Shown piece by piece: positions 1,679-11,384 of a DNA stretch of 64,000 nucleotides. Every line of letters starts with the position of its first letter. Position 1 is the stretch's first letter. Under the pieces are notes generated by a model, which did not search any database, had not been told where the DNA came from, and saw only the letters and a program-made list of their open reading frames with translations. The position numbers were made by a program, and so were the translations under genes. Source of the DNA: Lingula anatina (Eukaryota; Animalia; Brachiopoda); the NCBI GenBank assembly GCA_051362555.1, contig CM120643.1:10788001-10852000 (forward strand), read 5' to 3'.

Positions 1679-1956
1679 CTAAACTAGTGACATATTGTCT
1701 TTATTGTCTTGCGTTCCATGGTTTATATTAACGTTGGGGTGATGTAGCTCCCGTAGTTCTTCCTTGGCTCTTGTTGCTCTTTTCCACGTGATACTAAACA
1801 AAATGAACACCAAAAACAGTATAAAAAGAACAAGTCCTCCCAGTGTCACCAATCCTGACATCAATTCTGCTTTCTGGGACTGTAAATTTTGAGTGATTTG
1901 ATCAAATCTTTCATTCTCTTTTAACTCGGACCGCTGGCCTATTCTTTTTAAAAATC
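1679..1956 (-). CDS. Collagen-like gene terminal exon: juxtamembrane segment, transmembrane helix, cytoplasmic tail
   Basis: ttttag|GFLKRIGQR...; ~24-residue hydrophobic stretch followed by KRATRAK; stop codon ends at 1679. Confidence 0.75.
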
Positions 1957-4900
1957 CTAAAAATCGAAATTTACAAACTGTTAGCTGCATGAAAAAAAAA
2001 AAAGACATATTTATGACTGGTCTAGTTATAAGTCATTTCAAAATATCACGTATTAACCTGATGAGAAACTAACGCTTTTATTTAATATGTAAATAATCAA
2101 TATTAATAATTAAGACATTAAAAATAATAATATGAGTTTTGGATGCGATTTTAAACCAAAACTTGCATTTAAATTCAACTTTATTTCTAATCTTTTTTAC
2201 ATTCCCCACGATATAATAAGCTTTACCTAAAAGATTGTCGACTGGGCCTAGCTTTGGGATGATGTTTTTCCGCCCTAAGTCTGCAAATAGGCCAAATGTT
2301 CTTGTTTTACCAAAGACTCTAGTCTTTTTACCAGGGCCTTTAACTCCGAATAGAACTAGACTAGTTCCAAAAGGACCCTTAGTTCCGAATCCACCTGTCG
2401 TTCTAAAAGGACCTTTAGTTCCGAATCGAAATGTCGTTCCAAAAGGGCCTTTAGTTCCGAATCGAACTGTCGTTCCAAAAGGGCCTTTAGTGGCGAATCG
2501 ACCAGTCGTTCCAAAAGGTCCAGTCGTTCTAATTGGGCCAGTGGTTCCTTTGGACAGGAAAGCCGGTGTTGTTGCCATGAAGGGGAAGATGATGATTTGA
2601 CCTGCTCAACAGAGTTCTCACAATAAGGCATGACATAGACATACATGTACGAGATACAAAGTGGGCAAGAAAACACCACAAAATGTTAGCATTGATTCTG
2701 CCTGTGATAAGCACCTGTGAATGGGTCTCTTCTAAAAATCTCGGAAGCACTTAACTTTTTCAGAATCATGAAGACGCATTTATGAATGTTAAATTGTTTA
2801 ATCAGTTAATCTGTACGAACAGTGGGGCGAACAAAAAAGAAAAAGCACTTATAAGACTGATGAAATAGTACTAATTCTCCCGTTTGACCTATCCCCATTC
2901 AATATAATTAAATAAGAATTTTTAGGCTATCTTTCACATTCTCACAATAATGCCCAATTTAGACATATGTGTATTGTTTGTGATAAAAAGAAATGCATTT
3001 AACAAGAATCAATAAAGATGGTTAACATTCTGGCACCATTATATGTGATCTCTTAAAAGTGCAGGAAACACCAGACTGTAGGAAAACGTTTTTCTGTGTG
3101 CAGATTAATCAACAGGCATTAATGGACGTTAAATTGTTTAATCAGTTTAACCTATATATATATATATATAAGACAACAAATAGGGACGATGAAACTGTAC
3201 TTACCCGGCATTCCCCTTTCTCCCTTTTGCCCATTGTTGCCTTTCATTCCCGTTTCTCCCTTTTGACCATTATTGCCTTTCATTCCTCTTTCTCCCTTCT
3301 GACCTACTCCATTGTTGCCCTTCATTCCTCTTTCTCCCTTCTGACCTACTCCATTGTTGCCCTTCATTCCCTTCATTCCTGGAGAATGTAGTTAAGTTCA
3401 GAATTTCAGGTCATCCACAAGGTTTTTTAAAAGACACAAAGCACAGAACAGGCATTAACGTATGATAAATTGTTTAATCGGTTTAACCTGTATGTGAAGT
3501 AAGCGAAAAAAGAAAGAGTACTAATGGGACTGATTGAGCTGTACTTACCTGGACTCCCCCTTTCTCCCTTTTGACCTATTCCATTGTTGCCCTTCATTCC
3601 TAGATACAAATACAAATTTTTAGGCATCATACACTCATAATAAAGCAAGATGCAGGTATACGAATGTTAAAAAATTTTAATACATATAACAAGAAATTAT
3701 CACAAAAGTTAACATTCTGTCCTTTGTCACAATACAGCATGAAATAGGCATAGGTATATAAAATAATAAAGAAAAAATAAATGCATATCACAAGAAATGA
3801 TCACAAAAAAAGTTAGCATTCTGACTGTGTTGAGCACCTGTGCATGATATTCTCTTGAAAATATATAAAGTACCAAACCGAGAGCAGGGGCAGACCCAGG
3901 ATTAATTAAAGGAGATTTTTTTTTTTGGTTGGGGGGGGGGGGGGGGGGGGCGGGCTGGATGAGATGCAAAGCAGCTACTCAACCCCCTTGACGCGGGATG
4001 TGGGGGTTACTGAAGGCCCCCAAGAAATGTTGGGGTTTTGGAGGGCAAATGGTGTCATTTGCTATTGTTTTAAACTAGTAAATTAGCTAGTAAATTCAAA
4101 ATTTCAAAAGTGAAGTATTTTTTTCTGAACCCGGGGGGAGGGGGGGGGGCAGGACCCCCTAGCTCCGCCTAAATCCAACACTGTGAAGAAAACTTTCGAA
4201 TTTTTCCTGGCGCAGAATAAATAAGAGTGAGCATTAAATCATTTAATCAGTTTAGCCTGAATGAATAGGGATAAAAAGTTACTTAGCAGAATGATAAACT
4301 GTACTTAGCCTGGCTTCCCCTTGCTGCCCTACAGTTATATTCAGAATTTTAGCTTATCACACATATGCTGCTTCTTTTTTACTTCTCCCAAAGCCCCAGA
4401 ACCCCATCTATGCGAATCTAGAATAAATTGATGTTTTGACATCTTTAAAGTGGTGATTTTATAAAGATCAAGACCCAGTTTCATAAAGGACATATAGTGT
4501 TTAACTGGATGAAATATTTAAAGGTCAGTTTAACTAACCGACTGTTTGAACACTGTTTATGAAACACAATTTCAACCGCCGTTTAGTTAATGGGTGTTAT
4601 TTATCCACTGGTTAGACTTAAACACTGGTTAGTGCTAAACGTCCTTTATGAAACTGGGCCCAAGGTGTTTTTTGTCTCTTCATTTTGTTATTTTGCTTAA
4701 TGTTTGGATTTGAGAGGAGTGAGAAAAAGACATGGTTTTAAAGAAGCTTGCTTCAAAAACTAAGGAGAAAATGACATCGTATGCACAGACAAATTTCTTA
4801 TAATTTAAGAAATAAAACACTATCATGCATTTTTTTAATATACAAAGATAACCAATTATCAGTTTTTCAAGCCAAGATATTTTTAATTGTTCATTTTGAT

Positions 4901-10900: not shown

Positions 10901-11384
10901 CTGTTGGCCCTGTTGGCCCATCTTGTCCTGTTGGTCCTGTCATACCATTATCCCCTTTCATCCCTTTGTCTCCAGTTGGCCCTGTTGGCCCAGTTGGCCC
11001 ATCTTGACCAGTTGGTCCAGTTGGCCCATCTTGACCATCTTGTCCTGTTGGTCCTGTCATACCCATATCACCTTTCATCCCTTTGTCTCCAGTTGGCCCT
11101 GTTGGCCCTGTTGGCCCATCTTGTCCTGTTGGTCCTGTCAAACCCGTGTCACCCTTCATCCCTTTGTCTCCAGTTGGCCCTGTTGGCCCTGTTGACCCAT
11201 CTTGTCCTGTTGGTCCTGTCATTCCCATATCACCTTTCATCCCTTTGTCTCCAGTTGGCCCATCTTGTCCTTGCATACCTTTTTCACCTTTTTCGCCCTT
11301 TTGTCCTTTCATGTCATTTCCATTTCCAGCGCATTCTTTGGCCACTGTTAAAAATACTACTAAACTTATCAGGAAGCACTTCAT
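1679..11384 (-). CDS. Giant collagen-like predicted type I transmembrane protein (~1869 aa, 6 coding exons)
   Basis: Exons 11384-6698, 6403-6359, 3599-3549, 3378-3205, 2601-2227 and 1956-1679 are joined by GT-AG phase-1 introns. They total 5610 nt and read through without a stop. Signal peptide [20 protein letters not shown], then Gly-X-Y domain, GPFGTT stalk, hydrophobic helix [24 protein letters not shown], basic KR, tail ending SLV. Confidence 0.8.
2227..2601 (-). CDS. Collagen-like gene exon 5: GPFGTT/K hexapeptide-repeat stalk
   Basis: gcag|[15 protein letters not shown]...GPFGTT repeats...DNLLG|gtaaag; in frame with ORF 2078..2578. Confidence 0.75.
3205..3378 (-). CDS. Collagen-like gene exon 4 (174 nt)
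   Basis: ctccag|[18 protein letters not shown]...GMPG|gtaagt; phase 1-1. Confidence 0.82.
3549..3599 (-). CDS. Collagen-like gene exon 3 (51 nt)
   Basis: tctag|[18 protein letters not shown]|gtaagt; phase 1-1. Confidence 0.8.
4472..4660. mobile_element. MITE, PIF/Harbinger-like
   Basis: Terminal inverted repeats gacccagtttcataaagga / tcctttatgaaactgggcc; 3-bp target duplication CAA. Confidence 0.7.
5341..5941 (+). mobile_element. 5'-truncated non-LTR retrotransposon (L2/CR1-group) 3' end
   Basis: ORF 5341..5751 reads ARLLT...[27 protein letters not shown]...[18 protein letters not shown]...[10 protein letters not shown], typical of the ORF2 C-terminus. It is followed by a 3' UTR, AATAAA and a (TTA)n tail. 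Confidence 0.85.
6359..6403 (-). CDS. Collagen-like gene exon 2 (45 nt)
   Basis: tttcag|[16 protein letters not shown]|gtaaat; phase 1-1. Confidence 0.8.
6698..11384 (-). CDS. Collagen-like gene coding exon 1: signal peptide plus ~510 Gly-X-Y triplets
   Basis: Part of ORF 6663..11498. True ATG at 11384 lies just after acceptor ttatag; donor G|gtaag at 6698. Repeats [18 protein letters not shown]. Confidence 0.93.

Follow-up and report, generated by a model that had tools for sequence, protein, structure and literature searches.

A collagen gene of the brachiopod Lingula anatina with a predicted C-terminal membrane anchor and a transmembrane-mucin-like layout

In this study, a collagen gene on the minus strand of a 64,000-nucleotide (nt) stretch of the Lingula anatina genome was analysed (GenBank assembly GCA_051362555.1, contig CM120643.1, positions 10,788,001 to 10,852,000 of the forward strand). 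The whole stretch is termed the window, and coordinates are counted from its first letter. Six joined exons of the gene encode 1869 residues with a single terminal stop, comprising a signal-type start, a very long collagen array, a basic stalk and a C-terminal hydrophobic helix. Our preferred reading, to which we give an even chance, is that the product would be a type I membrane chain forming a homotrimeric rod of 0.45 micrometres, stabilised by sugars on Thr and by salt bridges, and serving as a mucin-like coat or cuticle spacer on an outer epithelium. Published work is cited throughout for the portions of each paper that were covered.

Results

The array consists of 520 unbroken Gly-X-Y triplets (residues 27-1586), compared with a longest run of 342 among the 120 collagen matches listed. 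It is followed by shorter runs of 6, 4 and 11 triplets, which end at residue 1655 and are parted by three two-residue Gly-X-Gly breaks (Gly-Ile-Gly or Gly-Val-Gly). Exon 1 is built of approximately 46 variable modules, in which a 12-residue block precedes GPT/GQD triplets. The array is under selection for triplet register because the frame is open (no stop in frame, versus 102 and 56 in the alternative frames), the offsets of exact internal repeats of at least 40 nt are all multiples of 9 nt (424 of 424), and the core Gly codons are intact (487/487). By comparison, 13 single-base variant types were found at positions 1-2 of X and Y codons, a contrast with P ~0.005 under equal rates. Assembly collapse as the origin of the open frame was rejected, the longest exact internal repeat being 233 nt; the real length of the array may differ from the assembled one. 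When exons 1, 4, 5 and 6 were scanned against Pfam, only Collagen was found, and COLFI, C1q, C4, vWA, EGF and SEA gave no match, in agreement with the initial annotation, which had seen no COLFI, C1q, NC1 or vWA domain. Exons 2 and 3 are pure collagen repeat by eye, and the two Cys of the whole protein both lie within the signal segment. The predicted rod length, recomputed for 520 triplets, is 446 nm, so that the earlier estimate of about 0.45 micrometres stands.

The composition of the array is unlike that expected of a hydroxylated helix; neither this chemistry nor the salt-bridge pattern and the mucin-like layout described below had been noted in the initial annotation. Among the 520 Y positions, Thr occupies 284, Lys 100, Asp 77, Met 30 and Pro a single one; Thr in Y thus makes up 18% of the helix (284/1560), and Ala occurs once in 1560 residues. 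There are 212 Gly-Pro-Thr triplets, and exon 1 contains 34% Pro, Thr and Ser together with 33% Gly. Prolyl 4-hydroxylation acts on Pro in the Y position. Because Pro is present at only 1/520 Y positions, hydroxylation has almost no substrate and, judged from composition, hydroxyproline cannot stabilise this helix. The helix (6698-11306) is also rich in Met (116/1560), which is unusual for a collagen, and is acidic (net charge -71), whereas the stalk is basic.

Charge pairs and glycans are the candidate substitutes. The array holds 41 KGD and 7 KGE motifs, in D-K-G-M-K-G-D blocks. Under the i+2 and i+5 rules of PMC11923368, 144 possible inter-chain Lys-Asp/Glu bridges were counted versus 55 +/- 8 (maximum 82) in 1000 triplet shuffles; these are not 144 independent events, as the excess comes partly from one amplified module and the shuffle overstates independence. 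According to the same paper, (Gly-Pro-Thr)10 remains a random coil unless its Thr is galactosylated, TGP is frequent in microbes and viruses and not in eukaryotes, and the order of Thr glycosylation and folding is stated as unknown. An animal precedent is the cuticle collagen of Riftia pachyptila, which is stabilised by glycosylated Thr (PMC11766948). By analogy, Thr glycosylation is likely a second stabiliser beside the salt bridges.

Membrane topology was predicted from hydropathy and charge. The 19-residue Kyte-Doolittle mean exceeds 1.2 in two segments only, namely, the N-terminus (1.67) and residues 1805-1841 (with the peak at residue 1813). The N-terminal hydrophobic core has 11 residues and is too short for a signal anchor, and the C-terminal membrane helix is predicted to span 23 residues, with the basic WKRATRAK directly after the hydrophobic segment. 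That positive charges flank the inner side of a membrane helix is established knowledge (the positive-inside rule). The short N-terminal core, the long C-terminal helix and the basic residues after it together lead to the prediction of type I topology, so that the arrangement proposed in the initial annotation is upheld as a prediction. A type II signal anchor was rejected on account of the 11-residue core, and a glycosylphosphatidylinositol anchor on account of the 34 polar residues after the helix.

Between the collagen and the membrane, the stalk comprises 125 residues of 12-residue Gly/Thr/Phe/Lys repeats with a net charge of +17. Single-sequence AlphaFold2 modelling of exon 6 gave one continuous helix over its residues 2-71, running into the membrane segment, with an unstructured tail (predicted local distance difference test score, 78). 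A three-copy trimer prediction of the exon, made without an alignment, scored 0.02 with a mark of 0.32 and is no evidence either way. The trimer-nucleating coiled coil formerly suggested for the juxtamembrane segment is weak, since it offers two heptads only, and 125 non-collagen residues separate it from the end of the collagen. In DNA run X3, M, F and W replace the core residues I1798, L1802 and L1809, a set that stays hydrophobic but is no conserved Leu/Ile zipper. The X3 contig over exons 5-6 may represent a distant allele or a paralogue. The predicted cytoplasmic tail has 34 residues and does end in S-L-V, as annotated; its reading as a PDZ ligand is weak, given that by composition an S/T-x-V end arises by chance at ~0.9% and S/T-x-V/I/L at ~2.9%, with no relatives for judging conservation.

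The six phase-1 exons proposed in the initial annotation were all recovered (Table 1). The five introns are without exception GT..AG and phase 1. Read-through of the exon-1 donor to the stop at 6663, 35 nt past the donor, would yield a secreted form. For exon 5, 16 in-frame AGs stay open to the 2227 donor, and the contig of run X8 that is unbroken over 2225-2380 leaves eight of these as acceptor candidates, including 2601. At 2601-2606, a tandem NAGNAG acceptor offers 2604 or 2601. All internal exons are phase 1-1, and each, the stalk included, is therefore skippable in frame. An AG 4 nt upstream of the ATG makes an upstream exon possible; at ~12848 on the minus strand, 1.46 kb upstream of the ATG, a GTAAGT donor, noted by eye, may close a 5′ untranslated exon that contains a short upstream open reading frame. 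Introns 2-4 have blocks in common that are 74-87% alike, which indicates tandem duplication of exon-intron units, and intron 4 carries a decayed copy of an exon-3-like collagen exon (~2865-2890, minus strand). Multi-copy repeats in intron 2 (4500-5780), including an inverted-repeat element at 5194-5368, are the source of nearly all RNA reads mapped.

Splicing was observed at two of the five junctions. Runs X8 and X9 are tentatively labelled 'DNA?', but their contigs resemble RNA in that the pieces listed from 1300 to 3400 fall on exons 4, 5, 6 or the 3′ untranslated region. One X9 contig skips the 170-nt exon 3-4 intron exactly (join 3549/3378; CT..AC on the forward strand), and another skips the 270-nt exon 5-6 intron exactly (2227/1956), its allele differing by one substitution and an in-frame deletion of 9 nt. 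Through the latter join, the transmembrane exon, on which the initial annotation depended, is included in spliced molecules. DNA run X3 covers the introns and holds neither splice joint, which argues against a retrocopy. At 6685, past the exon-1 donor and ahead of the 6663 stop, it also has 4 nt inserted, which shift the read-through frame and fit intron sequence. X3 differs at 137 places over the stretch, of which 16 are listed; none of the 11 listed single-gap indels falls in coding exons (P ~0.09 alone). Both length changes of exon 5, a net 36-nt deletion in X3 and the 9-nt deletion in X9, are in frame. Overall, it is quite probable that collagen and membrane helix belong to one chain, with the exon 4-5 link supplied by the gene model.

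Homology searches returned no relative. For exon 6, none of 171 candidates from proteins of 161-2000 aa reached E<=1, a search of 1.84 billion representatives yielded nothing at E<=0.001, none of 333 pattern matches from metagenome contigs held up, and Pfam showed only sub-threshold membrane-helix noise; the exon 5-6 sequence does not recur within the window. Exon 1 gave 5765 matches of generic low-complexity collagen likeness. Among the 120 listed, no orthologue was found, and identity within the best ten does not exceed 57%, over 43% of exon 1. A crude hydropathy rule applied to this mostly microbial set of 120 found no protein that combines a signal-type start, collagen and a C-terminal helix, and three with the C-terminal helix only. 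In the literature covered, no animal collagen was found to be described as type I or as anchored at its C-terminus, which is weak evidence of absence as most subscription journals lay outside its scope, and no annelid or brachiopod Gly-Pro-Thr collagen genes were found described either; word searches brought up collagens of microbes and viruses alone, and the portions covered of PMC3308698 and PMC6321704 hold nothing on collagen topology. Gene models of this shape may well exist unreported in invertebrate genomes.

Table 1. Coordinates of the collagen gene and its features within the window
Feature	Position	Strand	Evidence
Start codon and predicted cleaved signal peptide, residues 1-20	11325..11384	-	Sequence and hydropathy; cleavage inferred
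Exon 1, 4687 nt: signal peptide and most of the 520-triplet run	6698..11384	-	Pfam Collagen, E 4.6e-234
Start of intron 1: GTAAGA donor, in-frame stop at 6663	6663..6697	-	Sequence
Exon 2, 45 nt (15 codons): five collagen triplets	6359..6403	-	AG/GT, phase 1; acceptor pyrimidine fraction 0.75
Exon 3, 51 nt (17 codons): collagen, first Gly-X-Gly break	3549..3599	-	X9 contig joins it to exon 4
Exon 4, 174 nt: Pro-poor, Lys/Glu-rich collagen end, two Gly-X-Gly breaks	3205..3378	-	X8 contigs 3220-3350; X9 joint at 3378
Exon 5, 375 nt: basic Gly/Thr/Phe-rich stalk, length-variable, acceptor uncertain	2227..2601	-	X8 contig 2225-2380
Exon 6, coding part: juxtamembrane helix, membrane helix, cytoplasmic tail, stop	1679..1956	-	X9 splice to exon 5; X9 contigs 1533-1700, 1815-1896, 1867-1962
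Juxtamembrane amphipathic segment F1795-M1810, two heptads, varies between runs	1859..1906	-	
Predicted transmembrane helix, residues 1813-1835, then KRATRAK	1784..1852	-	Hydropathy peak 3.05
C-terminal S-L-V, class I PDZ-type ending	1682..1690	-	Identical in X9 contig 1533-1700
3′ untranslated region: AATAAA at 1622, ATTAAA at 1591	1533..1678	-	X9 contig reaches 1533; trace reads in X17, X19

The window has a guanine-cytosine content of ~35% and is animal DNA. Upstream of the collagen gene and on the same strand lie exons of a SAMHD1 dNTPase gene, at 36128-36292 (E 4.5e-30 versus SAMHD1 of the PDB) and at 25590-25973 (assigned by eye). Exons of a TRIP13/Pch2 AAA+ ATPase are present on the plus strand at 54428-54583 and ~54960-55040 (E 3.4e-24). 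Bacterial contamination or recent transfer of the collagen gene was rejected on account of its splicing and of these animal flanking genes. Beside the SAMHD1 gene, broken reverse-transcriptase-like frames of the long interspersed nuclear element type were noted by eye on the plus strand (36621-39000 and 39398-40051), and a zf-C17orf113 zinc finger at 43646-44047 (plus strand, E 6e-9) presumably stems from a hAT-type DNA transposon. The plus strand at 60302-61828 carries an intron-less gene that is 97% identical over its full length to Lingula anatina LOC106180675 and is condensation-domain/alcohol-acetyltransferase-like (Pfam Condensation, AATase, PapA_C). A homology search with it returned three matches only, each from Lingula, and an intron-less acyltransferase of the nonribosomal peptide synthetase condensation type in an animal merits attention.

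Discussion

The known transmembrane collagens (the MACITs XIII, XXIII, XXV and COL-99; collagen XVII; the colmedins, ectodysplasin A and class A scavenger receptors) resemble the Lingula protein in crossing the membrane once, in having a collagenous ectodomain and little sequence in the cytoplasm, and in forming a short helix next to the membrane. The contrast that the initial annotation drew with them is borne out, in that, without exception in the portions covered, they are assigned type II topology (PMC7848082, PMC4678570), and the part covered of a Caenorhabditis elegans collagen survey mentions only N-terminal or unplaced membrane segments (PMC7852208). The type II proteins have an N-terminal cytoplasmic domain and a signal anchor, whereas the Lingula protein has a signal-type start and its helix at 1813-1835. 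MACIT helices are interrupted by non-collagenous domains, but the Lingula chain runs through 520 triplets and has three two-residue breaks; MACITs carry a juxtamembrane coiled coil and a furin site, and here two heptads, a predicted helix and no extracellular RxxR are found. Fibrillar collagens differ again, with a COLFI domain, ~340 triplets and hydroxyproline in Y.

Transmembrane mucins, by comparison, are type I proteins with a giant length-variable repeat exon, a short class I PDZ tail and a reach of up to ~1 micrometre (PMC13643018). MUC3, MUC12 and MUC17 have in common with the Lingula gene the type I topology (predicted here), one giant Thr/Pro-rich repeat exon, length variation and a class I PDZ-type end; in Lingula the repeat exon measures 4687 nt and its link to the membrane helix across exons 4-5 is inferred. 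Mucins differ in possessing SEA or EGF domains, which the Lingula chain lacks, and in being monomers, whereas the Lingula chain keeps a strict Gly register and is predicted to trimerise. The Pro/Thr/Ser (PTS) share of exon 1 is also far below the ~61% of MUC17. On sequence grounds, the layout is closer to that of a transmembrane mucin than to that of the membrane collagens, and the protein is a member of neither family, because it lacks the type II topology of the collagens and the SEA domain and PTS dominance of the mucins.

Other collagens resemble single aspects of the chain. The Riftia cuticle collagen is likewise lophotrochozoan and likewise has Thr as the dominant Y residue; it is reportedly much longer than the Lingula chain. 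It differs in being secreted with globular ends, and no membrane anchor is described for it in the part of PMC11766948 covered. BclA, Scl1/Scl2 and EPclA have Pro in X, Thr or charged residues in Y and no hydroxyproline, and are stabilised by glycans or salt bridges (PMC11923368). The Lingula gene differs from these bacterial and viral proteins in being a spliced animal gene between SAMHD1 and TRIP13 neighbours. Scl proteins are anchored at their C-terminal end. The EGF shell collagens of Lingula (PMC4595640, PMC13425148) are also lineage-specific and without COLFI, some of them with 2757 and 2523 aa, but they have EGF domains, are Ala-rich and occur in the shell proteome; the present chain, for which none of this was found, is not one of them. 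Collagen rows of the 2015 shell table show 5-21% Ala (PMC4595640), versus the single Ala of the helix here, and four motifs of the Lingula chain matched no peptide in the part covered of the 2026 shell proteome supplement (PMC13425148). The 'Transmembrane YES' flag of the 2026 table stands, in the part covered, on most secreted proteins and without a position, and is no proof of type I topology. A shell role, which had been offered as one possibility, thus finds no support in the two published shell proteomes, although both could miss the chain for want of a gene model or owing to glycans.

Several other readings of the gene have to be weighed. The anchor could serve only to trimerise and fold a membrane-tethered precursor, the rod being cut within the basic stalk and released into the cuticle, pedicle or shell matrix. 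This agrees with the lack of any other trimerisation domain, with dibasic pairs between collagen and membrane (KK1744, RK1763, KR1781), with the free variation of stalk and juxtamembrane segment between runs, and with the shedding of type II membrane collagens by furin (PMC4678570). We consider it unlikely, though a serious candidate, as no extracellular R-x-K/R-R or R-x-x-R site is present (the sole RxxR lies in the predicted cytoplasmic tail) and the shell proteomes, even if they could miss the chain, provide no matching peptide (2026) and Ala-rich collagens (2015). Alternatively, the locus could make two products, with exon 1, or exons 1-4, encoding a secreted collagen and exons 5-6 a small membrane protein of their own. 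The sequence character shifts abruptly at the exon 4-5 border, where the join was not seen and the acceptor is weak, and the in-frame stop just past the exon-1 donor would suit such a scheme. However, exon 4 ends in a GTAAGT donor, no stop-bearing terminal exon was noted before exon 5, 603 nt away, and the phases match. Depth is also equally low for exons 3-4 and 5-6, which turn up in the same runs, hydropathy shows no signal peptide in exon 5, and the 4-nt insertion of X3 lies in the read-through. Two products are considered somewhat less probable than a cleaved precursor.

A further reading holds that the triple helix was lost and that the collagen repeats now form a single-chain, O-glycosylated bottle brush of the mucin type. 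It would account for the absence of hydroxylatable Pro, the Pro, Thr and Ser content of exon 1 and the mucin-like layout, and Gly-Pro-Thr peptides do not fold unglycosylated (PMC11923368). A plain mucin, however, needs neither the Gly kept in 487/487 core triplets nor repeat offsets that keep the triplet register, and the KGD/KGE motifs suit triple-helix geometry; we regard this reading as improbable. Very little weight falls on a fast-evolving gamete, larval or immune recognition protein whose rod presents the variable stalk, or on a decaying gene whose spliced contigs stem from a retrocopy. The many amino-acid changes in X3, where 6/8 changed codons lie in residues 1793-1809, and the near-zero cover in five RNA-seq runs speak for these readings. 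For recognition, though, the variable parts lie at the foot of the rod, next to the membrane, and no binding domain is present at the distal N-terminus; for decay, the 5.6 kb of coding sequence contain no stop or frameshift and X3 has no intron-less joint.

The reading of a membrane-anchored trimeric rod also faces evidence that weighs against it, beyond the shared origin of many bridge motifs described above. RNA-seq runs X11, X13, X14, X17 and X19 (polyA or unspecified, 6-30% of each searched) gave no cover of coding exons and only intronic repeat reads together with 3′-end traces in X17 and X19, in a comparison that had no control gene. Exon 1 was compared with reads over its last 163 nt only, where no RNA cover was found, and exon 2 had no transcript cover in the runs examined. 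The two splice joins are carried by one contig each, at a depth of ~3, from a single run listed as 'DNA?', and the joins 6698/6403, 6359/3599 and the decisive exon 4-5 join 3205/2601 were not seen in contigs. The acceptor at 2601 has a pyrimidine fraction of 0.5. In exons 5-6 of X3, the 15 listed codons hold 8 amino-acid versus 7 silent changes, which fit weak constraint as well as fast evolution, and exon 6 has no homologue in the searches made by which its conservation could be judged. The finding rests on one species with no relatives found, and the function is putative.

Under the preferred reading of a type I rod, the chain would enter the endoplasmic reticulum via its signal peptide and be held in the membrane by the C-terminal helix, and trimerisation would begin at that end. 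The triple helix would then zip towards the N-terminus, stabilised by salt-bridge clamps and Thr glycans, and the finished rod would stand in the surface coat or cuticle. A type I anchor lies at the end where triple helices start folding, and hence it could replace a trimerisation domain. We propose, tentatively and with less assurance than for the rod itself, that the protein may be an animal collagen of reversed topology, which would join the plan of a transmembrane mucin to a hydroxyproline-free helix with Thr glycans and salt bridges, the anchor taking the place of the C-propeptide.

Conclusions

If this proposal is true, Lingula would possess a stiff collagen glycocalyx 0.45 micrometres in depth, and the gene would be a cloneable animal substrate for determining at what point, and through which enzyme, a collagen is folded by glycosylation of its Thr. 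Its microbial-style code (Thr and KGD without hydroxyproline) is rare in eukaryotes according to the portion covered of a 2025 survey (PMC11923368) and would make it an animal test case for the timing of Thr glycosylation. The gene would also add a class to the lineage-specific collagens of Lingula and may offer a long collagen scaffold that is independent of hydroxylases.

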